From Escherichia coli (GTDB lineage Bacteria > Pseudomonadota > Gammaproteobacteria > Enterobacterales > Enterobacteriaceae): 64,000 nucleotides of DNA. The number at the start of each line of letters is the position of its first letter. Position 1 is the stretch's first letter. Position numbers and translations under genes: made by a program. Shown one piece after another: positions 13,088 through 44,840 of the stretch. Under the pieces are notes generated by a model, which searched no databases, was not told the DNA's origin, and saw only the letters and a program-made list of their open reading frames with translations. Where the stretch lies: assembly GCF_013315695.1 (NCBI RefSeq), contig NZ_CP054353.1; one strand, given 5' to 3'.

Positions 13088-13549
13088 TTATTTCACTTCT
13101 TTAAAACCAGCGGCTTTCATCACCAGTTCCATTTGCGCCATAGTGATACCTTTTTTGGCATCTTCAGCAGAAACGTTGATTCCTGAAATACCCTGCAGGG
13201 CTTTAAAATCCACTTTTTCCATATCAATAGTCACGTTTTCCTGCGCGTAGGTATCGGTATAGGTTAATTTTTCTTCAACACCCGCGATGTTTTTGTATTT
13301 GGCGCTTAACGGCTCAAGTGTCCTGGCGGCATCTTCTTTGGTGGTTGCACCAATGGAGGCAAATTGAATTTTGGTTTCAGAAGATTGCTTAAGCACCTTG
13401 TCACCTTTGTAGACATAGGTAATGGCAATTTCAGTGCCGTTCAGATTGGCGCTGAATTTCTTTGATTCTTCTTTGTCACCGCAGCCAGCAAGAGAGAAAA
13501 CCAGAACAGATGCAACAACAAGGGAAAACAGCTTATTGAAAGCCTTCAT
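13088..13549 (-). CDS. yehR: Lipoprotein YehR
   Basis: Signal peptide with lipobox (LAGCG); start at MKAFNKLF. Confidence 0.8.
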   Translation of the reverse strand: MKAFNKLFSLVVASVLVFSLAGCGDKEESKKFSANLNGTEIAITYVYKGDKVLKQSSETKIQFASIGATTKEDAARTLEPLSAKYKNIAGVEEKLTYTDTYAQENVTIDMEKVDFKALQGISGINVSAEDAKKGITMAQMELVMKAAGFKEVK

Positions 13550-20250: not shown

Positions 20251-20548
20251 ATTTACTACTTTCAGGCCTAACACCACGGCCTGTGCAACATCGTGTTCCA
20301 ACGAACGAATTATAACCATCGGTGGACCCCGTTGCAATTAAGATAATGAGATTTATAATCCTGACTGTTGGGAGGTTGCGCCGGATCGAACCCATTTCAA
20401 GTCCTGGCTACCGGACGGGTGGTGCCGCAGGTAGTGCCCTGATCCGGAGTGCAACATCGTGGTCCAACATACGTAAACCAGTATCGACAGGCAGGTGATG
20501 CTGCCAACTTACTGATTTAGTGTATGATGGTGTTTTTGAGGTGCTCCA

Positions 20549-20824
20549 GTGGCTTCTGTTTCTATCAGCTGTCCCTCCTGTTCAGCTACTGACGGGGTGG
20601 TGCGTAACGGCAAAAGCACCGCCGGACATCAGCGCTATCTCTGCTCTCACTGCCGTAAAACATGGCAACTGCAGTTCACTTACACCGCTTCTCAACCCGG
20701 TACGCACCAGAAAATCATTGATATGGCCATGAATGGCGTTGGATGCCGGGCAACAGCCCGCATTATGGGCGTTGGCCTCAACACGATTTTACGTCACTTA
20801 AAAAACTCAGGCCGCAGTCGGTAA
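20549..20824 (+). CDS. insA: IS1 InsA
   Basis: 91-aa ORF inside IS1 copy A. Confidence 0.9.
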
Positions 20825-21246
20825 CCTCGCGCATACAGCCGGGCAGTGACGTCATCGTCTGCGCGGAAATGGACGAACAGTGGGGCTATGTCGGGGCTAA
20901 ATCGCGCCAGCGCTGGCTGTTTTACGCGTATGACAGGCTCCGGAAGACGGTTGTTGCGCACGTATTCGGTGAACGCACTATGGCGACGCTGGGGCGTCTT
21001 ATGAGCCTGCTGTCACCCTTTGACGTGGTGATATGGATGACGGATGGCTGGCCGCTGTATGAATCCCGCCTGAAGGGAAAGCTGCACGTAATCAGCAAGC
21101 GATATACGCAGCGAATTGAGCGGCATAACCTGAATCTGAGGCAGCACCTGGCACGGCTGGGACGGAAGTCGCTGTCGTTCTCAAAATCGGTGGAGCTGCA
21201 TGACAAAGTCATCGGGCATTATCTGAACATAAAACACTATCAATAA
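20743..21246 (+). CDS. insB: IS1 InsB (expressed as InsAB' fusion by frameshifting)
   Basis: 167-aa ORF overlapping insA inside IS1 copy A. Confidence 0.9.
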
Positions 21247-21256
21247 GTTGGAGTCA

Positions 21257-21967
21257 TTACCCAGTAGCATATTCCAGACCGCCTTCCTGAATAATCTGAT
21301 CCATAACATCCTCACGCTCTTTATATCTCGTGCAGTGCAGTTCAAGTGCCGCGAGTACAGCCATTACCGGTGATGGTAATTTTGTCGTTTTCGGGCTGTT
21401 AATCAGATCGATCGCCTGAGCGATGAAGTTTTGCCACTCTAAAGTACAGGCGCTGAAGTCAAATGTAGCTGTTTTGTTATCCCGTTGCGACACGCCACAG
21501 GCTAAGCGACGTAACTGGGTTAATTTATCTACAGGTGTAACAGGATCTCCGGGAAAGCGGCGATGGCTTAAGGTGGTGGGTACGACTTCAAGCGGAAAAA
21601 CGACAGCAATATCTTTTGCCAGCCACGGTAAAATAACGTCTGTATTTTTGTCAGCCACGTAGATTTCTGGTGTAACTGAGGGCTGTTCCTGAATGATGGT
21701 AGAAAAGTCAGATAATTCGAGAGTTTTCGTTACCGTTCGAGTATGTTTCGATGTAGCATTCTCCGCTTGTTCCACATACCCCTTTTTCGTTTTCTCCGCA
21801 ATCAGCTTGAGTTCCGCTTTTTCCGCCGCCGCAGCATCTGCAAAGCTTTTTACCTGACTTTGCCCGTTGGTGCCGACTTTGCCCCAACTGATATTCAGTT
21901 CGTTTCCCTGCTGCTCCACCGCCCAGAATTTATGTGATTTTTCGTCCTGATAAATATAGGTTTTCAT
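21257..21967 (-). pseudogene. yehI: yehI-like WGR-domain protein, N-terminal 235 codons only, truncated by IS1 copy A
   Basis: ORF begins MKTYIYQDEKSHKFWAV (WGR) and its stop codon lies inside the IS1 terminus. Confidence 0.65.
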
Positions 21968-23658: not shown

Positions 23659-25084
23659 TAATGCCAGTCAGTTAAGCAACTGACTGGCTCTTTTTCGGGG
23701 CTGTGGGGTATTTCCAGGGCCTCTCCTTTACCACTCTCGGGAAGGCCCTTTCCCTTCTTGTCGGTAATTTCACAAGTTGTCCCATACTTGCAAGATCGCG
23801 CATCAGCTCCGGTATACGTCCCGGTGAAGCGCCCTGCAATGTCATCAGCATTCTCATCACCATTCCGCATGATTCTGAGAAACTCAGTTGATTCGGCCAG
23901 TAACCTTTCAGATGTTCCGCCATTTTAATCATCTGATATCTCACCAGATTATAAGCCAGTAAGACACCCCACAGCTCTTGCTCCACAAGCTCCGGTTTTT
24001 TACTTCTCAGCGTCAGCCTGCTCAGTTGCATCGTCTGTTTTATCTCCCTGTATCCCAGTTCGATTTCCCAGCGATGACTGTACAGATCCGCCATTTCTCC
24101 TCCGGGGAAGCGCATGGCGTCCGTCATCGACGTCAGCAGATGGCAGACTTTTCCTTTGCGCGTCACGGTCAGCAGGCGGGCTGTCACTTCATTTCCCAGT
24201 CCCGGCCACTTTTTTCGTGCCTGCGGGCTGGTTTTCAGCTTCACCAGATGATCGCCTTTACCCAGTTTTCTGATCTCTTCATATTGCGCTCCCTTTCTGA
24301 GAGGTATCATCCAGTGGCGGTGTTCTCCCGCCAGGCTCCAGGCATTTAACAGTCCCAGTGAGTAATAACCTTTATCCATTAACGTCAGAGTGTTATCGCC
24401 GGTTTGTTCTATAAGTTGCTCAGCAAGCTCATTTTCGCTGTTCTTCATCGTGCCGAAGGCTGCAGCCGTCAGCAGATGGCTGGTCAGTTCCATCTGGCAG
24501 ACCATTTTGACCTGCGGGTAGAGCGCCGGGTTCCCGGCATGTGTCTGGCGGGGGAAGGCTGCATCGTTCTCTGGTGTATCCGGTGTGCGCCAGAACACAC
24601 CATCGATGGCCAGCAGGGTCAGGCCGCACCAGTGCGGATGCGGCGTGGCGTTATGCCAGAGCTGCGCTGTTTTCGTGAACACGCGGCGGACAGCCTCACT
24701 TCCCAGGCGCTGGCGGGCCTGAATAACGGCACTGGGGGCAACGAAGGGGCGATTGCCCGGCAGCATGATGTCCAGGCGATTCACAATCTGGTGAAGAGGT
24801 TCTTTACGCTCAAGCGCCATGCCAACAATACACCAGACCATCATTTCGAGGGGAAGACGGCGCTTGCGTAGCGTTACAGTACCTGATTCGGCAAGGCAAC
24901 GAGAGATGAGTTCGGGGTCGAGGTAATCCCCCAGAGAAGTCAGTGGGTTACGCAGAGAATCGTAACGGGATACCAGATCAAGAGCCTGTCCAATGTGCAT
25001 AAAAAAATCCGGAAACAAGTGAGCGTTTCCGGATTCTTACACAGCCACTGGATCGGTCAACTGATCCTTAACTGATCGGCATTA
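23659..25084 (-). mobile_element. IS4 (1426 bp) with 12-bp target-site duplication catccttgtaag
   Basis: Termini taatgccagtcagttaag … cttaactgatcggcatta; identical 12-mers at 23647-23658 and 25085-25096. Confidence 0.9.
23672..25000 (-). CDS. insG: IS4 transposase (DDE family)
   Basis: ORF 23672..25018; likely start at [10 protein letters not shown]. Confidence 0.85.
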
Positions 25085-27322
25085 CATCCTTGTAAGCCAT
25101 TTTTTTCTGTAACCGCTGCGCCATTGGTAAGGCTAGTTCACTGGCCCCAATAAAGAGGGTGAATATCCACAGTCGTTGATGATCTCGTTGCAAGCAGGTC
25201 ATAAACGAAGGAATGGCCGTACTGCCAAAAATCCCCAGAATCTCTTTCTCACCTGAATATTGCTCCTCAATGATTATTTGGTTGAGAAATGAAATCGCCT
25301 GTTGTCCCGGTAAGTAACAAAGTGCAGATAGATTCCAGCTCTTGTTGGCATTGTTGTGATATTTCGCAAACTCAGCTTTTAGTGTTGGAAAATCAAAGCG
25401 CAACAAGGCATCAACAGCGCTTTGCGGTATATATTTTTTTTCATGCAAGTCATCCTCGCAATGCCGCCATTCATTAAAACCTAATTGCCAAAGGATTTGT
25501 TGTTCTGGTGTAAAAGGAATGAAAGATGTCTCCCAACTTTCTTTTTCAATTAGTGGCAGATCGGTAAATAAGGTTTGCTGTGATGCCTGATATTGCGCGA
25601 TTTCACTGAATCTGGATATGTCAGTATGACTGATTAACTCTGTAATTCCAGGTGTGATATCCGTCACGGCTGGAACAGGAAGCACAGGTAAATCAAATAC
25701 GGGTATTACATTTTTCTTCTTATTTATTACCCACGGTGGAGCGACAAATAGCTGCGGTAGCATATCCGCAGTAGCGTATTCATATTCTTCAGCGACTGAC
25801 TGAGGACGACATTCAGATAAGATGCCTGCCGCCTTAGCATTAACCCAGGGAATGACGTCGCATACTAACTCTGGCGTGATGGTAATCAATTTGACAAGCG
25901 CTTTATGCCACTCTTTATCTTCATGTATTGCCAGCAAAGTTGCATAAGCGGCAATAGCCGCAGCGGGATGTTTTTGACAGGCTTTGCTTAAGTATTCCAG
26001 GTGCTTTTTCTTGCCAATTACACCGAGGATCAGAATTTGAATCGCATCCGGGTGATTCGTTTTCCATAACCATTTGACAAGATCTTCAGTCTCGCTGATG
26101 CGCTCGAAGAGATAAGTGGGATTGTCAGAATGCTCTTCCACAAACTCAGTAAGTATCCGGCTTACACCGCTCACCCCATTATTTGCCAGCAACATTGCCA
26201 GATAAGCGCGAAAATCACGATATAACGGTGGGAAGTCGTATTTTTCTGCTGCAGTCAGAGCGGCATCATCGGTTACTACCAGTCTTAACCAGGTCATCGC
26301 CGGAACGTTTTGGTCTGCGTAACGTAGAGCCATAGCATTGGCAATATCCGGGCGTTCAGGGAGCAGTAACGCCGCAAAAGGTTGCCGTGCTGGGGATAGC
26401 GTCGGAATAGCAGTAAGCACTTTATTCACACAGCGTTGCCACTCATCTTCTGAAGCGAGTGAAAGATGATGACATAGACGTTGATGCCAACTCGGTAGCG
26501 ATTCTGCTTTGTGACCAGGTGGAATGATGGTGGTGACTGCGCCTTTTACTGGTTTATATTTGAGTTGAAGAGCAAAAAGGGCGATTTCAACGGCACTTTC
26601 CAGACCACAGCGAATGACTAAGTCATCGACCAGTTCATCTGCAGAGTAAGAGTTCCAAAAACTCCAGAGCAATGCCGCATCAGATTGCGCACTCCCTGTT
26701 TGTTGATTGTCCAGAATTCGACTTTGTAACTCGGCAAACGCTTGCTGCCAGTTTTCAGGATAAGAGCGGTAATTATTGTCGGGGTCATATGCCCTGGTGT
26801 TATTCGCAATGCGCTGCCATATTTGACCATCTTTGTGCAGATAATTGATCTCTCTGGGGCGAGAGCGATGTGGAAAAGCAAATCGATTAATATCGTCAGT
26901 GACAGGAATGACTGCATCATCAGCCAGCCATGGGTGTTTATTTTGACTCACAGGGGGAGTTTTAACTTCAGGAGTGGCTTTGGTGACTGGAGGGAGATAT
27001 ACGTTTGCCGAATTGCCTTCCACATACCCCTTTTTCGTTTTCTCCGCAATCAGCTTCAGCTCCGCTTTTTCCGCCGCCGCAGCATCCGCAAAACTTTTTA
27101 CCTGGTTTTGCCCTTTGGTGCCAACTTTTCCCCAACAGATATGCAACTCGTTTCCCTGCTGCTCCACCGCCCAGAATTTATGTGATTTTTCGTCCTGATA
27201 GATAAAGTGTTTCATTCTGCATTCCTGTAATTTTATCCAGTTGAATGCTGATGCTACCAGTATTTATGCGGGTTAGAGAGAGACAAAATCGCAAGAAAAC
27301 AACTTTAGGAATTTATAAAGAA

Positions 27323-27346
27323 AAGGCGCTGTCGATGCAGCGCCTT
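27323..27346. terminator. Bidirectional hairpin between metG end and molR start
   Basis: aaggcgctg-tcgatg-cagcgcctt with T-run on the minus strand. Confidence 0.55.
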
Positions 27347-27355
27347 GAAGGGGGA

Positions 27356-29389
27356 TTATTTCACCTGATGACCCGGTTTAGCACCAGCATCCGGGCTTAG
27401 CAGGAAGATATCTTTCCCGCCAGGACCGGCAGCCATCACCATGCCTTCGGAGATACCGAAGCGCATTTTACGTGGTGCCAGGTTAGCCACCATAATGGTG
27501 TGACGACCAATCAGTGCCTGCGGATCCGGGTAAGCAGAACGAATGCCGGAGAAGACATTGCGTTTTTCACCGCCGAGATCCAGCGTCAGGCGCAGCAGTT
27601 TGTCAGAACCTTCAACAAACTCTGCGTTTTCGATCAGCGCCACGCGCAGGTCAACTTTGGCGAAGTCGTCAAAGGTGATGGTTTCCTGAATCGGATCATC
27701 TGCCAGTGGGCCAGTAATTGGCGCGGCAGCTGCTTTCACTTCTTCTTTAGACGCTTCCACCAGTGCTTCAACCTGCTTCATATCGATGCGGTTATACAGC
27801 GCTTTGAACGGATTCACTTTGTGGCCCAGCAGCGGTTGCTGGATACCATCCCAGGTCAGTTCTGTATTGAGGAATGCTTCTGCGCGCTCGGTCAGTTTCG
27901 GCAGTACCGGCTTCAGGTAAGTCATCAGCACGCGGAACAGGTTTATGCCCATTGAGCAAATTGCCTGCAGGTCGGCATCGCGGCCTTCCTGTTTTGCCAC
28001 CACCCACGGAGCCTGTTCATCGACATAGCGGTTAGCCAGATCAGCCAGCGCCATGATTTCGCGTACTGCTTTACCAAATTCGCGGCTTTCCCACGCTTCA
28101 CCAATCACTTCAGCGGCATCAGTGAAGGTTTTGTACAACTGCGGGTCAGCCAGTTCGCTTGCCAGCACGCCGTCAAAACGCTTGTTGATAAAGCCCGCAT
28201 TACGAGAGGCCAGGTTAACCACTTTGTTAACGATATCGGCATTCACGCGCTGAACGAAATCTTCCAGGTTGAGATCGATATCATCAATGCGCGAAGAGAG
28301 TTTCGCAGTGTAGTAGTAACGCAGGCTGTCGGCGTCAAAATGATTCAGCCAGGTGCTGGCCTTAATAAAGGTACCGCGAGACTTAGACATCTTCGCGCCG
28401 TTCACCGTCACATAGCCATGAACAAACAGGTTGGTCGGCTTGCGGAAGTTGCTGCCTTCCAGCATTGCTGGCCAGAACAGGCTGTGGAAGTAAACAATAT
28501 CTTTACCGATGAAGTGGTACAGCTCGGCGGTGGAGTCTTTCTTCCAGTATTCATCGAAGCTTACGCTGTCGCCGCGCTTGTCGCACAGATTCTTGAAAGA
28601 ACCCATATAGCCAATCGGCGCATCCAGCCAGACGTAGAAATATTTACCCGGCGCGTTCGGAATTTCAAAACCGAAGTACGGCGCGTCGCGGGAGATATCC
28701 CACTGTTGCAGGCCGGATTCAAACCACTCCTGCATTTTATTTGCCACCTGCTCCTGCAACGCACCGCTGCGGGTCCATGCCTGCAACATTTCGCTGAAAG
28801 AGGGCAGATCAAAGAAGAAGTGTTCAGAATCACGCATTACCGGCGTAGCGCCAGAAACCACCGATTTCGGTTCGATCAATTCAGTCGGGCTGTAGGTCGC
28901 GCCGCAGACTTCGCAGTTATCGCCGTATTGATCCGGGGATTTACATTTCGGGCAGGTGCCTTTCACAAAACGGTCCGGCAGGAACATGCCTTTTTCCGGA
29001 TCGTACAGCTGAGAAATAGTGCGGTTTTTAATAAAACCGTTTTCTTTCAGGCGGCTGTATATAAGCTCTGACAGCTGACGGTTCTCTTCGCTGTGCGTAG
29101 AGTGGTAATTGTCGTAGCTAATGTTAAAGCCTGCGAAATCAGTCTGATGCTCCTGACTCATTTCGCCAATCATCTGCTCCGGGGTGATACCGAGCTGCTG
29201 AGCTTTCAGCATGATCGGTGTACCGTGGGCATCGTCGGCGCAGATGAAGTTGACCTCGTGGCCGCGCATTCGCTGGTAACGGACCCAGACATCAGCCTGG
29301 ATGTGCTCCAGCATATGGCCGAGGTGGATTGAGCCGTTAGCGTACGGCAGTGCGCACGTCACCAGAATTTTCTTCGCGACTTGAGTCAT
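27356..29389 (-). CDS. metG: Methionyl-tRNA synthetase
   Basis: ORF 27356..29398; start [26 protein letters not shown] (HIGH motif), KMSKS present; 677 aa. Confidence 0.95.
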
Positions 29390-29520
29390 AGTAGGCATTA
29401 CTTCTTAATAGTGAAAAGGGGTTAGATAGTACCAAATGGGAAAATGTTAAGTAAGTACTTCTCTATATTCTTCAGGTAAACTATCAGCTGATGGTTTATC
29501 TATACAAAAAAGGAGTCGGG

Positions 29521-30630
29521 ATGAACGAACAATCCCAGGCCAAATCACCAGAAGCCTTGCGCGCAATGGTCGCCGGGACACTGGCCAATTTTCAGCACCC
29601 AACCCTGAAGCATAACCTCACCACGCTGAAAGCGTTGCACCATGTCGCCTGGATGGACGACACGTTGCATGTGGAACTGGTTATGCCATTCGTCTGGCAT
29701 AGCGCGTTCGAAGAGTTAAAAGAGCAATGTAGCGCCGAACTGCTGCGTATCACCGGGGCGAAAGCTATCGACTGGAAACTGTCGCACAATATCGCCACCT
29801 TAAAACGCGTGAAGAATCAGCCGGGAATTAACGGCGTGAAGAACATCATTGCGGTCAGCTCCGGTAAAGGCGGCGTGGGTAAATCCTCCACGGCGGTAAA
29901 CCTGGCGCTGGCACTGGCGGCGGAAGGGGCGAAAGTCGGCATTCTGGACGCCGATATCTACGGCCCATCAATCCCCACCATGCTGGGCGCAGAAAATCAG
30001 CGTCCAACTTCGCCGGACGGTACCCACATGGCACCGATTATGTCTCATGGCCTTGCAACCAATTCAATTGGTTATCTGGTCACTGACGACAATGCGATGG
30101 TGTGGCGTGGTCCGATGGCGAGCAAGGCGTTAATGCAAATGTTGCAGGAAACCTTGTGGCCGGATCTCGACTATCTGGTGCTTGATATGCCGCCAGGCAC
30201 CGGTGACATTCAATTGACACTGGCACAAAACATTCCAGTAACTGGCGCGGTAGTGGTCACCACCCCGCAGGACATTGCGTTGATCGATGCGAAAAAAGGC
30301 ATTGTGATGTTCGAGAAAGTCGAGGTTCCGGTGCTCGGTATTGTCGAGAACATGAGTGTGCATATTTGCAGTAACTGTGGTCACCATGAACCGATTTTCG
30401 GTACCGGTGGTGCAGAGAAACTGGCCGAGAAATACCACACGCAGTTGCTGGGGCAGATGCCGTTACACATCTCCTTACGTGAAGATCTCGATAAAGGCAC
30501 GCCAACGGTTATCAGCCGTCCGGAGAGCGAATTTACCGCTATCTACCGCCAGCTGGCTGACCGCGTTGCAGCCCAGCTTTATTGGCAGGGAGAAGTCATT
30601 CCTGGCGAGATTTCCTTCCGCGCGGTCTAA
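29521..30630 (+). CDS. apbC: Fe-S cluster carrier ATPase ApbC (Mrp)
   Basis: ORF 29491..30630; start MNEQSQAKSP; P-loop GKGGVGKS; CxxC motif. Confidence 0.9.
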   Translation: MNEQSQAKSPEALRAMVAGTLANFQHPTLKHNLTTLKALHHVAWMDDTLHVELVMPFVWHSAFEELKEQCSAELLRITGAKAIDWKLSHNIATLKRVKNQPGINGVKNIIAVSSGKGGVGKSSTAVNLALALAAEGAKVGILDADIYGPSIPTMLGAENQRPTSPDGTHMAPIMSHGLATNSIGYLVTDDNAMVWRGPMASKALMQMLQETLWPDLDYLVLDMPPGTGDIQLTLAQNIPVTGAVVVTTPQDIALIDAKKGIVMFEKVEVPVLGIVENMSVHICSNCGHHEPIFGTGGAEKLAEKYHTQLLGQMPLHISLREDLDKGTPTVISRPESEFTAIYRQLADRVAAQLYWQGEVIPGEISFRAV

Positions 30631-30660
30631 CGCGTATTAACCTTTTTGGTTGTTTTTCAT

Positions 30661-30700
30661 ACACCGCAGAGATGTACATTGATGCGGTGTATTTGTTTTT
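30661..30700 (+). terminator. Intrinsic terminator after apbC
   Basis: acaccgca…tgcggtgt hairpin followed by atttgttttt. Confidence 0.55.
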
Positions 30701-30891
30701 GCCGCATTAATGAACACTTATTTAATGCTACGAATATTCTGCGGACCTTCGTCCGAAACTCTATAAAGTCGATTGATCGTACAGGCAATGCTTCATTATC
30801 ATCCTTCGTGGCTGTGTAGTGGATGTACAGCTATAGTTTGTTATGCACTCATTCTATCCAGGCATAACCTTTACTACAGGGATAACGTTCA

Positions 30892-31148
30892 ATGAATAAG
30901 TACTGGCTGTCAGGAATTATTTTTCTTGCCTATGGAATGGCTTCTCCCGCGTTCTCTTCACAGACTGCCACATTAACGATTAATGGCAGGATCAGTCCCC
31001 CAACATGCAGTATGGCTATGGTTAATGGTCAACCTCAACAGCATTGTGGTCAGTTAACGTATGATGTTGATACCCGTCATCAGGTTTCTTCGCCAGTCAA
31101 AGGTGTAACGACAGAAGTGGTTGTTGCAGGTAGCGATAGCAAACGTCG
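30892..31148 (+). pseudogene. yehE: yehE, 3' end truncated by IS1 copy B
   Basis: ORF 30892..31170 has a signal peptide then runs into the IS1 left end, which supplies the last codons and the stop. Confidence 0.65.
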
Positions 31149-31203
31149 GGTGATGCTGCCAACTTACTGATTTAGTGTATGATGGTGTTTTTGAGGTGCT
31201 CCA

Positions 31204-31479
31204 GTGGCTTCTGTTTCTATCAGCTGTCCCTCCTGTTCAGCTACTGACGGGGTGGTGCGTAACGGCAAAAGCACCGCCGGACATCAGCGCTATCTCTGCT
31301 CTCACTGCCGTAAAACATGGCAACTGCAGTTCACTTACACCGCTTCTCAACCCGGTACGCACCAGAAAATCATTGATATGGCCATGAATGGCGTTGGATG
31401 CCGGGCAACAGCCCGCATTATGGGCGTTGGCCTCAACACGATTTTACGTCACTTAAAAAACTCAGGCCGCAGTCGGTAA
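31204..31479 (+). CDS. insA: IS1 InsA
   Basis: Identical to the other copies. Confidence 0.9.
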
Positions 31480-31901
31480 CCTCGCGCATACAGCCGGGCA
31501 GTGACGTCATCGTCTGCGCGGAAATGGACGAACAGTGGGGCTATGTCGGGGCTAAATCGCGCCAGCGCTGGCTGTTTTACGCGTATGACAGGCTCCGGAA
31601 GACGGTTGTTGCGCACGTATTCGGTGAACGCACTATGGCGACGCTGGGGCGTCTTATGAGCCTGCTGTCACCCTTTGACGTGGTGATATGGATGACGGAT
31701 GGCTGGCCGCTGTATGAATCCCGCCTGAAGGGAAAGCTGCACGTAATCAGCAAGCGATATACGCAGCGAATTGAGCGGCATAACCTGAATCTGAGGCAGC
31801 ACCTGGCACGGCTGGGACGGAAGTCGCTGTCGTTCTCAAAATCGGTGGAGCTGCATGACAAAGTCATCGGGCATTATCTGAACATAAAACACTATCAATA
31901 A
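31398..31901 (+). CDS. insB: IS1 InsB
   Basis: Identical to the other copies. Confidence 0.9.
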
Positions 31902-31967
31902 GTTGGAGTCATTACCTAAATAGGCTTGATGAAAGTTCTATTTCTATATTTTTCAATATACAAATTT

Positions 31968-31995
31968 CCCCAAAAACGGCGTGAATATCACGCCG
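31968..31995 (-). terminator. Intrinsic terminator for the 94-aa ORF
   Basis: cggcgtg-atat-cacgccg hairpin followed on the minus strand by ttttt. Confidence 0.55.
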
Positions 31996-32000
31996 ATCAA

Positions 32001-32285
32001 TCATACTTCAGAACACATACTCAATGTGTAAACAGCCATCTCTCCATCGGGATTAGAAGGGCGTAATACAAATATCGGTATACTGCCATTGTCAATGTAT
32101 GTGGCTGCAACCCCTCCGTCAGGTGTAGCATACAAATCAAGTCCTTCACAAAACTCTTTTGCCGTAACCTTTTTAAGATGGTCAGCATATTTGATCATCT
32201 GGAGGTGCATTTCCATCGTTTGGCTATTTCGTGGTGCGCTGCTAATGGCTTGCTTAATGTTCTCGTAGATCTGGGTTTCTGTCAT
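32001..32285 (-). CDS. Hypothetical 94-aa protein of unknown function (orphan gene divergent from thiM)
   Basis: Clean ORF (MTETQIYENIKQ…) with its own terminator and an AT-rich upstream region carrying a perfect palindrome; I do not recognise the family. Confidence 0.5.
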   Translation of the reverse strand: MTETQIYENIKQAISSAPRNSQTMEMHLQMIKYADHLKKVTAKEFCEGLDLYATPDGGVAATYIDNGSIPIFVLRPSNPDGEMAVYTLSMCSEV

Positions 32286-32316
32286 TGTTTATCCCACCTA
32301 TCAAATTTAGAAAAAT

Positions 32317-32338
32317 AATATTAATTAGCTAATTAATA
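32317..32338. promoter_or_regulatory. 22-bp perfect palindrome atattaattagctaattaatat, candidate operator
   Basis: Perfect dyad symmetry read directly; lies about 32 bp upstream of the 94-aa ORF start. Confidence 0.4.
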
Positions 32339-32494
32339 TAATCAATGGTTTTCACCATCTGAATGATAGTCGCTAATTGTTTCTTTTTCATTCCTTCTAT
32401 GGGGTACAAAATGGGGTACACAGAGAAGAAGCAATTAATGGAGGCGAGCTTGCATCTGCAAGCCACTTCCCCTAAGCTGGCACAAAATATAGAG

Positions 32495-32631
32495 ATTCAA
32501 CCAAACGACTCGGGGTGCCCTTCTGCGTGAAGGCTGAGAAATACCCGTATCACCTGATCTGGATAATGCCAGCGTAGGGAAGTCACGGACCACCAGGTCA
32601 TTGCTTCTTCACGTTATGGCAGGAGCAAACT
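32495..32631 (+). promoter_or_regulatory. TPP (THI-box) riboswitch in the thiM leader
   Basis: Contains ggggtgcccttctgcgtgaaggctgagaaatacccgtatcacctgatctggataatgccagcgtagggaa, the classic thiM THI-box, directly upstream of the thiM start. Confidence 0.85.
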
Positions 32632-33420
32632 ATGCAAGTCGACCTGCTGAGTTCCGCGCAATCTGCGCACGCGTTACATCTTTTTCACAAACATTCCCCC
32701 CTTGTGCACTGTATGACCAATGATGTGGTGCAAACCTTTACTGCCAATACCTTACTGGCGCTCGGTGCATCGCCAGCGATGGTCATCGAAACCGAAGAGG
32801 CCAGTCAGTTTGCGGCAATCGCCAGTGCGTTGCTGATTAACGTTGGCACGCTGACGCAGCCACGCGCACAGGCGATGCGTGCCGCCGTTGAACAGGCAAA
32901 ACGCTCTCAAACACCCTGGACGCTTGATCCAGTAGCGGTGGGTGCACTCGATTATCGCCGCCGTTTTTGTCTGGAACTTCTGTCTCATAAGCCAACCGCC
33001 ATACGTGGTAATGCTTCGGAAATCATGGCATTAGCTGGCGTTGCTAATGGCGGACGGGGAGTGGATACCACTGATGCCGCAGCTAACGCGATACCTGCTG
33101 CACAAACACTGGCACGGGAAACTGGCGCAATCGTCGTGGTCACTGGCGAGGTGGATTATGTTACCGATGGACATCGTATCGTTGGCATTCACGGTGGCGA
33201 TCCGCTAATGACCAAAGTGGTAGGAACTGGCTGTGCATTATCGGCGGTTGTCGCTGCCTGTTGTGCGCTACCAGGCGATACGCTGGAAAATATCGCATCT
33301 GCCTGTCACTGGATGAAACAAGCCGGAGAACGCGCAGTTGCCAGAAGCGAGGGGCCAGGCAGTTTTGTTCCACATTTCCTTGATGCGCTCTGGCAATTGA
33401 CGCAGGAGGTGCAGGCATGA
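32632..33420 (+). CDS. thiM: Hydroxyethylthiazole kinase
   Basis: 262-aa ORF downstream of the TPP riboswitch. Confidence 0.95.
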
Positions 33421-34217
33421 AACGAATTAACGCTCTGACGATTGCCGGTACTGATCCGAGTGGTGGTGCGGGGATTCAGGCCGATCTTAAAACCTTCTCG
33501 GCACTTGGCGCTTATGGTTGCTCAGTTATTACTGCACTGGTGGCGCAAAATACCCGTGGCGTACAGTCGGTGTATCGCATTGAGCCTGATTTTGTCGCCG
33601 CCCAGCTCGATTCGGTGTTCAGTGATGTGCGAATCGACACCACTAAAATCGGTATGTTGGCGGAAACCGATATTGTTGAAGCGGTGGCAGAACGGTTGCA
33701 ACGTTATCAGATCCAAAACGTGGTACTCGACACCGTTATGCTGGCAAAAAGCGGCGACCCGCTGCTTTCACCTTCGGCGGTTGCTACGCTGCGCAGTCGA
33801 TTATTGCCACATGTTTCATTAATAACGCCAAACTTGCCCGAAGCAGCCGCCTTGCTCGACGCGCCACACGCGCGCACCGAACAGGAAATGCTGGAACAAG
33901 GGCGATCGCTGTTGGCGATGGGCTGTGGCGCAGTGCTAATGAAAGGTGGTCATCTGGATGATGAGCAAAGCCCGGACTGGCTGTTTACTCGTGAGGGGGA
34001 ACAACGGTTTACCGCACCGCGCATTATGACCAAAAACACTCACGGCACTGGTTGTACGCTCTCTGCGGCGTTGGCTGCACTGCGCCCGCGCCATACAAAC
34101 TGGGCTGACACCGTACAGGAGGCAAAAAGCTGGCTTTCATCGGCGTTAGCCCAGGCCGACACGCTGGAAGTTGGTCACGGTATTGGTCCGGTTCACCACT
34201 TCCACGCCTGGTGGTGA
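33417..34217 (+). CDS. thiD: Hydroxymethylpyrimidine / phosphomethylpyrimidine kinase
   Basis: 266-aa ORF; ATGA overlap with thiM. Confidence 0.95.
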
Positions 34218-34272
34218 GCACCGTACTATAGCTGCTTTGGTGATTGTCAGCCTTTGGCGCTGACATTCAGGG

Positions 34273-35100
34273 ATGAAACCAATGCAGCTGAGAATCACCA
34301 GTCGAAAAAAATTCACCGCTTTATTATGCGCTCTTGGGCTAATTTCCATCGTTGCAATTTATCCGCGTCAGACGGTGAATTTTTTCTATTCGACAGCAAT
34401 TCAGATTAAAGACTACATCCACTTCTACGGTTATCGCCCGGTCAAATCTTTTGCTATTCGCATTCCTGCCAGTTACACCATTCATGGTATTGATGTTTCA
34501 CGCTGGCAGGAGCGAATCGACTGGCAGCGGGTGGCAAAAATGCGCGATAACGGTATTCGCTTACAATTTGCCTTTATTAAGGCGACGGAAGGCGAAAAGC
34601 TGGTGGACCCCTATTTTTCGCGTAACTGGCAACTAAGCCGCGAAAATGGCCTGCTGCGCGGGGCGTATCATTATTTTTCCCCGTCGGTATCCGCTTCAGT
34701 TCAGGCGAGATTATTTCTGCAAACGGTGGATTTCTCACAAGGCGATTTCCCTGCCGTGCTGGACGTAGAAGAACGGGGAAAATTATCGGCAAAAGAATTA
34801 CGCAAGCGGGTAAGTCAGTGGCTAAAAATGGTCGAAAAAAGTACGGGGAAAAAGCCGATTATTTACTCAGGAGCCGTTTTTTATCACACGAATCTGGCGG
34901 GCTATTTCAATGAATATCCGTGGTGGGTGGCTCACTACTATCAACGTCGTCCGGACAATGACGGCATGGCCTGGCGCTTCTGGCAGCATTCCGACCGTGG
35001 ACAGGTCGATGGCATTAATGGTCCGGTGGATTTTAATGTGTTTAATGGCACAGAGGAGGAGTTGCAGGGATTCGTTGATGGGATTAAAGAAACGCCTTAA
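34273..35100 (+). CDS. yegX: YegX, glycoside hydrolase family 25 (lysozyme-like)
   Basis: 275-aa ORF with N-terminal signal/anchor; start may be at 34282 (MQLRITS). Confidence 0.75.
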   Translation: MKPMQLRITSRKKFTALLCALGLISIVAIYPRQTVNFFYSTAIQIKDYIHFYGYRPVKSFAIRIPASYTIHGIDVSRWQERIDWQRVAKMRDNGIRLQFAFIKATEGEKLVDPYFSRNWQLSRENGLLRGAYHYFSPSVSASVQARLFLQTVDFSQGDFPAVLDVEERGKLSAKELRKRVSQWLKMVEKSTGKKPIIYSGAVFYHTNLAGYFNEYPWWVAHYYQRRPDNDGMAWRFWQHSDRGQVDGINGPVDFNVFNGTEEELQGFVDGIKETP

Positions 35101-35151
35101 ATAAGAAGCAGTGATATACTCCCACCAGACTCCCCGGCAGGAAAAAGACAA

Positions 35152-35898
35152 ATGGAACAAGCGCATACCCAGCTGATTGCCCAACTGAACGAACGTATTT
35201 TAGCGGCGGATAACACGCCGCTTTATATTAAGTTTGCCGAAACGGTAAAAAATGCCGTGCGCAGCGGGGTGCTGGAGCATGGCAATATTTTGCCCGGTGA
35301 GCGTGATTTAAGTCAGTTAACCGGCGTTTCGCGCATTACGGTGCGCAAGGCGATGCAGGCGCTGGAAGAAGAGGGCGTGGTGACGCGTTCGCGTGGTTAC
35401 GGCACGCAGATCAACAACATCTTCGAATACTCGCTGAAAGAAGCGCGGGGGTTTTCTCAGCAGGTGGTATTGCGCGGGAAAAAGCCCGATACGCTATGGG
35501 TTAACAAGCGTGTCGTGAAATGTCCCGAAGAAGTCGCGCAACAGCTGGCGGTCGAAGCGGGAAGTGATGTCTTTTTGCTTAAGCGTATTCGCTATGTCGA
35601 TGAAGAGGCGGTATCGATTGAGGAATCGTGGGTTCCGGCGCATTTAATTCATGATGTTGATGCCATCGGAATTTCTCTTTATGACTACTTCCGCAGCCAG
35701 CACATTTACCCACAACGTACGCGTTCCCGCGTTAGCGCCCGGATGCCGGATGCCGAGTTTCAGTCACATATTCAGTTAGATAGCAAAATACCGGTGCTGG
35801 TGATCAAGCAAGTGGCGCTTGACCAACAGCAACGGCCTATTGAGTACAGCATCAGCTACTGTCGCAGCGATCTATACGTTTTTGTGTGCGAGGAGTAG
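35152..35898 (+). CDS. yegW: GntR-family transcriptional regulator YegW
   Basis: 248-aa ORF; N-terminal winged HTH, C-terminal effector domain. Confidence 0.85.
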   Translation: MEQAHTQLIAQLNERILAADNTPLYIKFAETVKNAVRSGVLEHGNILPGERDLSQLTGVSRITVRKAMQALEEEGVVTRSRGYGTQINNIFEYSLKEARGFSQQVVLRGKKPDTLWVNKRVVKCPEEVAQQLAVEAGSDVFLLKRIRYVDEEAVSIEESWVPAHLIHDVDAIGISLYDYFRSQHIYPQRTRSRVSARMPDAEFQSHIQLDSKIPVLVIKQVALDQQQRPIEYSISYCRSDLYVFVCEE

Positions 35899-36837
35899 TT
35901 CCTCGCGCGTTGGCGCACAATCACCGCCCCGATGCCCGACAACCCACGACGCCACTGCATTGCCCAGTAATACGGCATCCGCCAGTGGCAGACCAGAGGC
36001 CAGCCCGGCAAGTACGCCGCCGGCATGACTGTCGCCCGCCCCAATGGTGTCTACAACTTGCGTTGGAAATGCCGGAATGCAGCCAGAAGCGTCGTTGCTG
36101 AAATACCATGCGCCCTCTTTATCGAGACGAATGATCAACGGCGCGGCAAATTTCTCCTGCCATTGCTTGCCTAGTGTTGTTATCTCTGCGGATAGAGCAA
36201 AACGTTCGGCGGCAATCTCAGCCTCCTGACGATTGAGTGACACTAAAGGTCGACAGGCCATGATCCGCGCCAGTAATACATCCGGGATATCGCCAATACG
36301 TGGGCCAAAATCGATAAACGGCGTCACGTCTTGCAGCTTTTCCAGCCATTCCACTAACAATTCGCCGCAGGGCGAGGCCAGTTGATAACCGGAAAAATAG
36401 AGCAGGCTGCCAGGCGCAACGGTTAATCGCGCCAGCCACTGGCGATTCCACTGATTTTCCACACCGCTGAATGACATAAAAGTGCGTTCGCCATCCGGCT
36501 CAACCAGCGCCAGACACCAGCCGTTATCACCTTCGGCGTTATCGATCAGGCTGATTAAGTCCTCTTTTGCCATCCGGTTGCGAATAATCTCCGCCCACAC
36601 CCCCTGACCGAGCGGCAAGGCATTACCCGCTTCGATGCCGAGGCGCTTTAATGCCACGGCAATATTCAGTGCACAGCCGCCAACGTTAACGCTCTGCTGT
36701 TTCAGTTCGATATCGCACCCACGCCAGGGGAGGGCATAAGCGTCGGCGATCACATCAATGACCGCCGCGCCGACGACCATCACCGGCTGACGCGTGGCTA
36801 ATTCAGGCAGCAGCGTGTGTAATCGAGCGCCGCTCAT
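35872..36837 (-). CDS. yegV: PfkB-family sugar/nucleoside kinase YegV
   Basis: 321-aa ORF with PfkB-type motifs (GAGD). Confidence 0.85.
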   Translation of the reverse strand: MSGARLHTLLPELATRQPVMVVGAAVIDVIADAYALPWRGCDIELKQQSVNVGGCALNIAVALKRLGIEAGNALPLGQGVWAEIIRNRMAKEDLISLIDNAEGDNGWCLALVEPDGERTFMSFSGVENQWNRQWLARLTVAPGSLLYFSGYQLASPCGELLVEWLEKLQDVTPFIDFGPRIGDIPDVLLARIMACRPLVSLNRQEAEIAAERFALSAEITTLGKQWQEKFAAPLIIRLDKEGAWYFSNDASGCIPAFPTQVVDTIGAGDSHAGGVLAGLASGLPLADAVLLGNAVASWVVGHRGGDCAPTREELLLAHKNV

Positions 36838-39112: not shown

Positions 39113-39170
39113 CTTTTAATTCCTTCATGACAGGTAATGTAAGGTACGCGATGACGGTAATGACTCCAAC

Positions 39171-39674
39171 TTATTGATAGTGTTTTATGTTCAGATAATG
39201 CCCGATGACTTTGTCATGCAGCTCCACCGATTTTGAGAACGACAGCGACTTCCGTCCCAGCCGTGCCAGGTGCTGCCTCAGATTCAGGTTATGCCGCTCA
39301 ATTCGCTGCGTATATCGCTTGCTGATTACGTGCAGCTTTCCCTTCAGGCGGGATTCATACAGCGGCCAGCCATCCGTCATCCATATCACCACGTCAAAGG
39401 GTGACAGCAGGCTCATAAGACGCCCCAGCGTCGCCATAGTGCGTTCACCGAATACGTGCGCAACAACCGTCTTCCGGAGCCTGTCATACGCGTAAAACAG
39501 CCAGCGCTGGCGCGATTTAGCCCCGACATAGCCCCACTGTTCGTCCATTTCCGCGCAGACGATGACGTCACTGCCCGGCTGTATGCGCGAGGTTACCGAC
39601 TGCGGCCTGAGTTTTTTAAGTGACGTAAAATCGTGTTGAGGCCAACGCCCATAATGCGGGCTGTTGCCCGGCAT
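39171..39674 (-). CDS. insB: IS1 InsB
   Basis: Identical to the other copies. Confidence 0.9.
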
Positions 39675-39868
39675 CCAACGCCATTCATGGCCATATCAAT
39701 GATTTTCTGGTGCGTACCGGGTTGAGAAGCGGTGTAAGTGAACTGCAGTTGCCATGTTTTACGGCAGTGAGAGCAGAGATAGCGCTGATGTCCGGCGGTG
39801 CTTTTGCCGTTACGCACCACCCCGTCAGTAGCTGAACAGGAGGGACAGCTGATAGAAACAGAAGCCAC
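39593..39868 (-). CDS. insA: IS1 InsA
   Basis: Identical to the other copies. Confidence 0.9.
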
Positions 39869-40145
39869 TGGAGCACCTCAAAAACACCATCATACACTAA
39901 ATCAGTAAGTTGGCAGCATCACCCGCGATGACAATACCACTTAATAATACCTTTTAAATACCTTTGCGGTGAAAACTTGACCGCTGTAACATTTTTTCTG
40001 ATGAATCGAGCCAACAGAAAACGCTGAAAAAACATCCAAAAGATGGAAAAACTCGCCCGTAACGACCAGGATTATGATTGCCCGCAAAAGGCGGGCCAGG
40101 ACAATCCATAGCCGATATCCAATCGGAATTTACGGGAGCATAGTA

Positions 40146-43571: not shown

Positions 43572-43854
43572 GGACGGTATATGACTAACCTGTTTGTTCG
43601 TAGCGGAATTTCTTTTGTCGATCGTAGCGAAGTTTTAGCCCATATCGGTAATGAGATGCTCGCGAAAGGTGTGGTTCATGATACCTGGCCACAGGCATTA
43701 ATTGCCAGAGAAGCAGAATTCCCTACCGGGATAATGCTTGAGCAGCACGCCATTGCAATACCGCATTGTGAGGCGATTCATGCTAAGTCGTCAGCCATTG
43801 GTGATGCTGCCAACTTACTGATTTAGTGTATGATGGTGTTTTTGAGGTGCTCCA

Positions 43855-44130
43855 GTGGCTTCTGTTTCTATCAGCTGTCCCTCCTGTTCAGCTACTGACG
43901 GGGTGGTGCGTAACGGCAAAAGCACCGCCGGACATCAGCGCTATCTCTGCTCTCACTGCCGTAAAACATGGCAACTGCAGTTCACTTACACCGCTTCTCA
44001 ACCCGGTACGCACCAGAAAATCATTGATATGGCCATGAATGGCGTTGGATGCCGGGCAACAGCCCGCATTATGGGCGTTGGCCTCAACACGATTTTACGT
44101 CACTTAAAAAACTCAGGCCGCAGTCGGTAA
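43855..44130 (+). CDS. insA: IS1 InsA
   Basis: Identical to the other copies. Confidence 0.9.
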
Positions 44131-44552
44131 CCTCGCGCATACAGCCGGGCAGTGACGTCATCGTCTGCGCGGAAATGGACGAACAGTGGGGCTATGTCGG
44201 GGCTAAATCGCGCCAGCGCTGGCTGTTTTACGCGTATGACAGGCTCCGGAAGACGGTTGTTGCGCACGTATTCGGTGAACGCACTATGGCGACGCTGGGG
44301 CGTCTTATGAGCCTGCTGTCACCCTTTGACGTGGTGATATGGATGACGGATGGCTGGCCGCTGTATGAATCCCGCCTGAAGGGAAAGCTGCACGTAATCA
44401 GCAAGCGATATACGCAGCGAATTGAGCGGCATAACCTGAATCTGAGGCAGCACCTGGCACGGCTGGGACGGAAGTCGCTGTCGTTCTCAAAATCGGTGGA
44501 GCTGCATGACAAAGTCATCGGGCATTATCTGAACATAAAACACTATCAATAA
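44049..44552 (+). CDS. insB: IS1 InsB
   Basis: Identical to the other copies. Confidence 0.9.
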
Positions 44553-44840
44553 GTTGGAGTCATTACCTCAGCCATTTATCTGTTAAGGCCAACAAATAAA
44601 GTTCATTTTCAGCAAGCGGATGATGATAACGACGTGGCGGTATCGTTGGTTATTGCGTTGATTGTGGAAAATCCGCAGCAGCAATTGAAACTTTTACGCT
44701 GTTTATTTGGCAAGTTACAACAGCCCGATATCGTCGAGACACTAATTACTCTTCCTGAAACTCAGTTAAAGGAATACTTCACAAAGTATGTTTTAGATTC
44801 AGACGAATAAATCCCTCTGTAACAATAAAAAGGACTGTTT

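Follow-up and report, generated by a model that had tools for sequence, protein, structure and literature searches.

How did a single full-length IS1 come to lie between yehE and thiM in an Escherichia coli chromosome, with different 9-mers at its two ends, the yehABCD and rcnRAB genes missing, and a short piece of DNA foreign to K-12 separating it from the thiM riboswitch? We addressed this question by comparing the window, a 64-kb stretch of contig NZ_CP054353.1, with K-12 and with close relatives of the strain. In our assessment, the single IS1 is probably what remains of a stepwise, IS1-driven deletion that took place in an IS1-rich E. coli clone.

Layout of the yehE–thiM locus

The features of the locus, from left to right in the window, are as follows.

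27356–29398, minus strand: metG
ending at 30630, plus strand: mrp/apbC
30892–31170, plus strand: yehE::IS1 fusion ORF, 92 aa; the native yehE part spans 30892–31148 (85 codons plus 2 nt)
31140–31148: left 9-mer, CAAACGTCG, at the constant junction between yehE and IS1 copy 1
31149–31916, plus strand: IS1, IS1A type, full-length, 768 bp
31917–31925: right 9-mer, TAAATAGGC
31917–32497: right-end remnant of an islet, 581 bp, non-K-12
31977–31995, minus strand: terminator-like hairpin, from a consensus scan
32001–32285, minus strand: ORF of 94 aa, chimeric, with a partial Pfam HTH_73 match
32498–32579, plus strand: islet attachment core, attR copy, 82 bp, inside the thiM TPP aptamer
32501–32597, plus strand: thiM TPP riboswitch aptamer (Rfam RF00059)
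32632–33420, plus strand: thiM, 262 aa, intact (tblastn and ORF list)
33417–34217, plus strand: thiD, directly after thiM

The end of IS1 is separated by 581 bp from the point at which K-12 homology and the riboswitch begin, and by 715 bp from the thiM ATG (32632). These distances agree with the first-pass annotation of the window, which had placed about 0.7 kb with a different small gene ahead of thiM; the 94-aa minus-strand ORF lies inside this interval. ThiM is 95.8% identical to K-12 ThiM across 262 of 262 residues (tblastn), and its gene forms the right-hand anchor of the deletion. The TPP riboswitch is full length, covering positions 1–105 of the RF00059 model and scoring 71.2 bits (gathering threshold, 54.3).

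An intact IS1 without a target duplication

Members of the IS1 family measure about 768 bp and end in imperfect inverted repeats (GGTGATGCTGCCAACTTACTGAT / GGTAATGACTCCAACTTATTGAT, about 23 bp). The element at 31149–31916 is 768 bp long and has the expected right end, terminating in AAGTTGGAGTCATTACC. The left inverted repeat (IRL; 31149–31171, 23 bp) is exact and the right one (IRR) occupies 31894–31916; exact IRL matches occur four times in the window, against zero expected by chance. The coding features of the element, all on the plus strand, are listed here.

31204–31479, plus strand: insA, from the ORF list
31398–31901, plus strand: insB frame, from the ORF list
31455–31461, plus strand: A6C slippery run for the -1 frameshift

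The sequence of this IS1 is 100% identical to those of the three other copies in the window and of both copies at the same locus in the relative MSB1_4I. Identical elements in relatives are annotated as 'IS1A family transposase, programmed frameshift', and the identical gene there matches PF03811, PF12759, and PF03400 (Zn_ribbon_InsA, HTH_Tnp_IS1, and DDE_Tnp_IS1).

The window copies at 39156–39923 and 43800–44567 are each flanked by perfect 9-bp duplications. In contrast, the copy at 31149–31916 has CAAACGTCG on its left and TAAATAGGC on its right, as the first-pass annotation had pointed out, and a 9-bp target duplication is absent. This absence leaves the identity of the element as IS1 unaffected and marks the copy as something other than a simple insertion. 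Lost target duplications are often due to recombination between IS copies or to adjacent deletion (PMC11708052). A fresh insertion whose duplication has decayed was considered and rejected: the flanks are dissimilar and 9.4 kb of DNA are missing. We infer that the IS1 of the window is the recombinant survivor of two identical copies.

The yehE junction

The yehE-like ORF had been described as entering IS1 after about 85 native codons. By measurement, the native sequence stops after 85 codons plus 2 nt, codon 86 takes its third base from IS1, and the left end of the element then adds six more codons and a stop, so that VMLPTY replaces IVLNRYD ahead of the stop codon. K-12 YehE has 93 aa and ends in RRIVLNRYD; in the alignment, the window ORF diverges from it only past SKRR. 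Thus, 86 of the 93 YehE positions are kept and the seven C-terminal residues give way to six that are encoded by IS1. The earlier description of yehE as truncated is right in that IS1 ends the native frame, but the gene appears to be barely shortened. In MSB1_4I and in another relative, AF3, the identical fusion ORF is carried in RefSeq as 'yehE, DUF2574 family protein' (WP_001571625.1) and not as a pseudogene, and the fusion protein is recorded in 531 blocks of a public collection.

The left junction, CAAACGTCG followed by IS1, is common to MSB1_4I, AF3, the contigs L013–L022, KFu023, and 23CRST009, whereas the right junctions vary. From the same point in yehE, IS1 is joined to mid-yehA in AF3, to a partial yehC in KFu023, to the 3′ end of yehA in 23CRST009, and to rfb/wca genes in L013. 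One fixed IS end combined with variable far ends and no duplication is the pattern of IS1 adjacent deletion, and it appears to hold for the first step proposed below as well as for the related genomes. A synthetic junction query representing a simple IS1 insertion in yehE with duplicated CAAACGTCG gave split matches in two pieces and no contiguous one.

DNA lost relative to K-12 and to relatives

The gene order in K-12 (MG1655) is thiM-rcnR-rcnA-rcnB-yehA-yehB-yehC-yehD-yehE-mrp-metG, which bears out the order given in the first-pass annotation, with yehABCD and rcnRAB between yehE and thiM. Window positions 27019–31148 and 32498–36000 align to K-12, and the endpoints are exact to the base: the 7,104 bp at K-12 positions 2185436–2192539 are without a counterpart. 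The suspected absence of yehABCD and rcnRAB was confirmed by tblastn with K-12 RcnR, RcnA, RcnB, and YehA–D and by blastn with the 7.1-kb K-12 segment, neither of which gave a match at the locus or anywhere else in the 64-kb window.

Measured against MS 21-1, the closest IS1-free relative, the loss amounts to 9,413 bp (4,299 + 5,114). K-12 as the sole reference understates the loss (7.1 kb versus 9.4 kb), and it makes an islet remnant look like a resident gene. A 2-kb query spanning yehE, IS1, the remnant, and thiM found the exact allele of the window, at a coverage of at least 80%, in 0 of 5,426 complete E. coli genomes. The exact configuration is likewise absent from the 10 distinct yehE::IS1 fusion contexts listed among 23 contigs, and the allele rests on one assembly.

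An islet remnant at the thiM riboswitch

The segment 31917–32497 has no homology to K-12; in MS 21-1, AF3, and MSB1_4I, it forms a single stretch with integrase and HNH genes. The full islet between rcnR and thiM in relatives is 2.8 kb long and consists of attL, a tyrosine integrase, an HNH endonuclease, a truncated HTH_73 gene, and attR. At either end it has an 82-bp direct repeat that corresponds to the 5′ part of the TPP aptamer. Window positions 32498–32579 correspond to attR, and K-12 homology resumes exactly at 32498. In MSB1_4I, AF3, and MS 21-1, a second, 100% identical copy of the 82 bp adjoins rcnR on the upstream side of the integrase. This attL copy, which is carried together with the native thiM promoter region, was lost in the deletion. 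The window retains the attR core and the 581 bp only and thus holds a remnant rather than an islet; the full set of features of an integrative islet (an integrase near one end, direct repeats at both, and cargo that varies, HNH versus GmrSD) is found in the relatives.

The whole 581-bp segment occurs in only 3 of 5,426 genomes, and its right 355 bp in 563. At this site, K_EC180 carries a variant of 8.8 kb in which the integrase and the HTH_73 end are the same and enclose GmrSD and other cargo. The 'rcnR-thiM' site is listed as a defence-island location in supplement file 4 of a published survey (PMC10121019). A search of the literature for integration into the thiM riboswitch found nothing, the site appearing only as 'rcnR-thiM' in that supplementary table (PMC10121019).

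Residues 2–51 of the 94-aa ORF match positions 1–50 of the 71-position HTH_73 model (PF24718, E = 1.4e-17), and the ORF does not contain a complete HTH_73 domain. Homology to the intact K_EC180 protein (81 aa) ends near residue 48, and the C-terminal half of the ORF is unrelated to it. The 103-aa parental form of the ORF is annotated in RefSeq as an incomplete HTH-like pseudogene, and a 27-bp in-frame deletion between 32133 and 32134 is private to the window. A scan against NCBIfam of the 94-aa ORF and of the intact K_EC180 homologue yielded no meaningful match, and an exact look-up of the 94-aa sequence returned zero records. The 'different small gene' of the first-pass annotation is therefore the chimeric, truncated right end of the islet, not a resident gene.

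Just past the stop codon of the 94-aa ORF, a pattern match identified a hairpin (31977–31995) with an 8-pair stem, including 6 G-C pairs, followed by a T run, TTTTTGGGGA. Between IS1 and the riboswitch, no sigma-70 consensus promoter was found on the plus strand; the only two sites are on the minus strand and do not exceed the level in shuffled sequence.

In the relatives, the aptamer copy at attL scores 61.3 bits; its P1 helix is weakened, and 66 nt separate it from the start codon of the integrase downstream. One could speculate that the 0.58 kb is the tail of an islet family that uses the thiM TPP riboswitch as its attachment site, with excision tied to thiamine and thiMD run from islet DNA, a state that the IS1 recombination would have frozen; we consider this combined proposition rather improbable. 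If it were true, the islet integrase would, upon integration, come to lie directly behind the host thiM promoter region and a near-complete aptamer, and thiamine salvage in this strain would rely either on read-through from IS1 or on a promoter within foreign DNA.

Sister genomes showing intermediate arrangements

The arrangements of the locus were compared in genomes that are 99.7–99.98% identical to the flanks of the window. Four states can be distinguished.

State 1, MS 21-1: IS1-free, with yehE-yehDCBA-rcnBAR-islet-thiM intact
State 2, AF3 and at least 6 further assemblies: IS1 at the left junction of the window, its right end in mid-yehA, 4,299 bp lost
State 3, MSB1_4I and the NCTC assembly UGAA01000001.1: the state 2 arrangement with a further IS1, identical and equally oriented, located between the HNH gene and the HTH remnant
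State 4, the window: a single IS1 flanked as copy 1 is on the left and as copy 2 is on the right

The second IS1 lies at 6001–6768 of L001 from MSB1_4I and at 13144–13911 of L014 from NCTC UGAA01000001.1, with TAAATAGGC on both sides in each case; in MS 21-1 and AF3, the TAAATAGGC site is single-copy and uninterrupted. The TAAATAGGC of the window would thus be what is left of the target duplication from this second insertion, namely its right half. The right flank, IS1 followed by TAAATAGGC, is base-identical to that of copy 2 in MSB1_4I and NCTC UGAA01000001.1, and the left flank, CAAACGTCG followed by IS1, is identical to that of copy 1 in MSB1_4I, AF3, and 10 further assemblies. Both MSB1_4I copies are on the plus strand and mutually 100% identical.

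The window and MSB1_4I are collinear across 64 kb except for the loss of 5,885 bp and the 27-bp deletion, and outside the prophage tail genes they differ by 4 substitutions in approximately 54 kb. The changes private to the window are the 27-bp deletion and 2 SNPs. At 25759, the sole informative SNP, which is unpolarised by an outgroup, the window has the allele of both two-IS1 genomes and not that of the AF3-like ones; the islet-free L022 also has the two-IS1 allele. The closest genomes come from human blood, rectal swab, and colon samples. They are E. coli, with 99.7–99.9% identity over 64 kb, and an origin of the window from Shigella was rejected on these grounds.

A proposed stepwise deletion and its alternatives

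The arrangements above can be ordered into the following course of events. The ancestor would have been MS 21-1-like, with the order mrp-yehE-yehDCBA-rcnBA-rcnR-islet-thiMD and with the 2.8-kb islet (integrase, HNH, truncated HTH_73) residing in the thiM TPP riboswitch between the 82-bp direct repeats. In a first step, IS1 would have entered the 3′ end of yehE, and a deletion from its right end would have removed 4,299 bp, comprising the yehE tail, yehD, yehC, yehB, and the first ~160 bp of yehA, to give the AF3 state. The route of this step could have been either adjacent deletion or recombination with an IS1 that was since lost. In a second step, an identical IS1 in the same orientation would have inserted into the islet, in the gap between the HNH and HTH_73 genes, duplicating TAAATAGGC and creating the Tn9-like state of MSB1_4I and the NCTC genome. 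In a third step, homologous recombination between the direct IS1 copies would have looped out one IS1 and 5,117 bp carrying the partial yehA, rcnB, rcnA, and rcnR, then attL together with the native promoter region of thiM, and the genes for the integrase and the HNH endonuclease.

The arrangements corresponding to the ancestor and to the first two steps are seen as extant genomes, and the third step is suggested by junction identity that is exact to the base. The predicted product of recombination in state 3 matches the window base for base. The outer flanks of both copies are present in the window, and a two-copy precursor with direct copies of high identity is present in relatives, as expected for recombination between IS elements. 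The proposed course also explains the missing target duplication, because the flanks of the surviving IS1 stem from different copies, the left one from copy 1 and the right one from copy 2. The crossover point within IS1 is invisible because both copies are identical.

The same sequence would result if the IS1 in yehE had transposed intramolecularly into the same 9-mer. Under this alternative of direct adjacent deletion, the yehE IS1 of an AF3-like ancestor would have transposed replicatively into TAAATAGGC without a two-IS1 intermediate, and MSB1_4I and the NCTC strain would have been hit in this 9-mer independently. The product is indistinguishable in sequence from that of recombination, adjacent deletion is a frequent cause of lost target duplications (PMC11708052), and this very IS1 makes nested deletions and rearrangements, as the differing right junctions of KFu023, 23CRST009, AF3, and L013 indicate. 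However, two independent hits in the same orientation on one 9-bp target would be needed in sister genomes a few SNPs apart, and the two-IS1 form exists in two assemblies that share the 25759 allele with the window. We therefore regard direct adjacent deletion as an unlikely account of the last step.

An assembly artefact, in which the identical direct IS1 copies of an MSB1_4I-like genome were collapsed and the 5.1-kb segment between them dropped, appears very improbable. Such a collapse over identical 768-bp direct repeats would give exactly the sequence of the window, and the searches described above found the allele in no other assembly. Against it, four identical IS1 copies are resolved in the window in unique contexts, three of which match relatives base for base; the assembly should therefore be a long-read or finished one, and such assemblies readily bridge a 768-bp repeat. 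Furthermore, its private deletion and SNPs mark the window as a distinct isolate, and deletions between IS copies are common biology.

The simplest reading of the window against K-12 alone, namely one event that removed yehD–rcnR from a K-12-like locus and left an unrelated resident gene in the 0.58 kb, is hardly credible, as it is contradicted by the islet, whose right end, bounded by the 82-bp riboswitch repeat, makes up the 0.58 kb and contains the IS1 right junction at the very site of the duplicated insertion in sister strains, and by the intermediates, the AF3 state indicating that the yeh deletion first ended inside yehA. Thus, the IS1-marked deletion between yehE and thiM that had been proposed for the window is supported, but its origin in a single event from a K-12-like order is not, at least three steps being indicated by the intermediates in sister genomes.

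Predicted consequences of the deletion

RcnR represses and regulates the Ni/Co exporter genes rcnAB (PMC7055735). With neither RcnA/RcnB efflux nor the RcnR repressor, the strain is predicted, from the gene families concerned, to be more sensitive to Ni(II) and Co(II). E. coli is not known to have another dedicated Ni/Co efflux system. Of the 5,426 complete E. coli genomes, 5,366 (98.9%) carry rcnA, so its absence is uncommon but not unique. The yeh operon is a cryptic chaperone-usher fimbrial operon; Yeh fimbriae would have been lost and were probably already inactivated at state 2.

On the right-hand side of the deletion, thiMD and the riboswitch are intact, and the native thiM promoter region is missing from the locus. 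The islet remnant would be unable to excise because its integrase and attL are gone.

The loss of yeh and rcn provides a usable strain marker, and metal sensitivity is a testable phenotype. The locus also offers an example of how an IS element without a target duplication can mark a multi-step deletion whose intermediates are still present in sister genomes. The allele is new, but the mechanism is textbook, and our findings do not challenge the current view of IS1 or of these loci.

Comparison with known systems

Four known systems bear on the locus. The supplementary table of Hochhauser et al. 2023 places a type IV RM island of E. coli 789 at 'rcnR-thiM' (PMC10121019). The chromosomal site is the same as that of the remnant described here, and K_EC180 has its 8.8-kb GmrSD version there. 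Unlike these islands, the window has the last 581 bp only: the integrase, cargo, and attL are gone, and the gene at the end is chimeric and 27 bp shorter.

In Shigella and in other E. coli clones with expanded IS complements, IS elements drive reductive evolution. The window resembles these cases in carrying four identical IS1 copies in 64 kb, with at least 40 matching places in the chromosomes of the relatives, and in that IS1 copies interrupt or delete accessory and metabolic genes (gatA, yeh, rcn). It differs from them in that the closest genomes belong to E. coli and not to Shigella.

Deletions next to IS150 in the E. coli long-term evolution experiment grow stepwise from a fixed IS end (PMC11708052). 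Similarly, the first step proposed here, KFu023, 23CRST009, and L013 share the fixed yehE junction and have variable far ends without a duplication. The last step in the window, in contrast to the IS150 deletions, is better explained by recombination between IS copies because the far junction coincides with a duplicated insertion in relatives.

In the classical IS1/Tn9 system, direct IS1 copies recombine, the segment flanked by them is lost, and one IS1 is left. The segment bracketed at the present locus is chromosomal (partial yehA, rcnBAR, integrase, and HNH), rather than a resistance gene; the two IS1 copies arrived separately, and the crossover is unmappable as the copies are identical. 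As in the Tn9 system, two identical direct IS1 copies bracket the segment in sister genomes, and the product in the window keeps one IS1 and the outer flanks of both, with no duplication.

Insertion sequences and prophage genes in the window

Features of the window apart from the yehE locus are as follows.

1..~9900: tail genes of a lambdoid prophage (tape measure, L, J, Lom and tail fibre), named from the annotation of MSB1_4I and AF3
20494..21261, plus strand: IS1 lacking a target duplication, with flanks ...ATCGACAGGCA / CAGTAGCAT...
23672..25018, minus strand: IS4 transposase ORF of 448 aa, splitting the large WGR/DUF4132 gene that adjoins metG
39156..39923, minus strand: IS1, simple insertion with a perfect 9-bp duplication
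43800..44567, plus strand: IS1, simple insertion with a perfect 9-bp duplication

One of the two simple IS1 copies lies within gatA (duplication TCAGCCATT) and splits this galactitol PTS IIA gene, so that a galactitol-negative phenotype is predicted. The other, which MS 21-1 lacks, occupies the yegT-fbaB intergenic region (duplication GTCATCGCG). At the WGR/DUF4132 gene, MSB1_4I and AF3 are likewise annotated with an IS4 flanked on both sides by pseudogene halves.

The IS1 at 20494..21261 is common to AF3 and MSB1_4I. Homology to K-12 ends at 20400 and restarts only weakly at 21256 (84%, yehF-like), and thus the DNA equivalent to yehH, yehI and yehK has probably been rearranged or deleted here, as at the main locus. 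The neighbours of this copy are yehL on one side and a truncated WGR-domain gene on the other.

Where the window differs in sequence from its sister genomes, almost every difference falls at 185..9616, inside the prophage tail genes. This clustering suggests recombination or replacement of the prophage rather than point mutation.

The integrase islet and its remnant

In relatives that carry the integrase islet, the TPP aptamer is present in an attL copy.

16072..16240 of L002 (AF3): region with the attL copy of the TPP aptamer, found also in MSB1_4I and in relative L005

This copy scores 61.3 bits (gathering score 54.3) and has a weakened P1 helix. It lies 66 nt upstream of the start codon of the islet integrase, and the native thiM promoter region is there with it. 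The thiM promoter may drive transcription of the integrase, which could respond to thiamine. In the window, the attL aptamer and thiM promoter region are deleted. The chimeric HTH_73 ORF, a remnant of the islet right end, carries a 27-bp in-frame deletion between TACA microhomologies at 32133/32134, which shortens it from 103 to 94 aa and is private to the window (0 of 12 relatives covering the site).

Recurrence of IS1 at yehE

The left junction of IS1 with yehE is shared by relatives with different right sides. In L013 (CP164702.1; IS1 at 7258..8025), the right side is joined to genes of the O-antigen/colanic-acid region (dTDP-sugar epimerase/reductase-like, NTP transferase and WcaM), which indicates a far larger IS1-associated deletion or inversion in that strain. 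In the clone member L022 (OZ039495.1; 10465..11748), yehE-IS1-yehA'-rcnBAR is followed directly by thiM, with a single att core and no islet; either the islet was precisely excised there or it was gained after the IS1 event.

Two strains with 98.2% identity to the window along the 401-bp yehE-IS1 junction query have the identical junction. IS1 in or beside yehE recurs in unrelated backgrounds (23CRST009, KFu023 and E. coli B strains, with BL21/REL606 carrying it at a different site). The yehE-yehD region is AT-rich and seems to be a hot spot for IS1.
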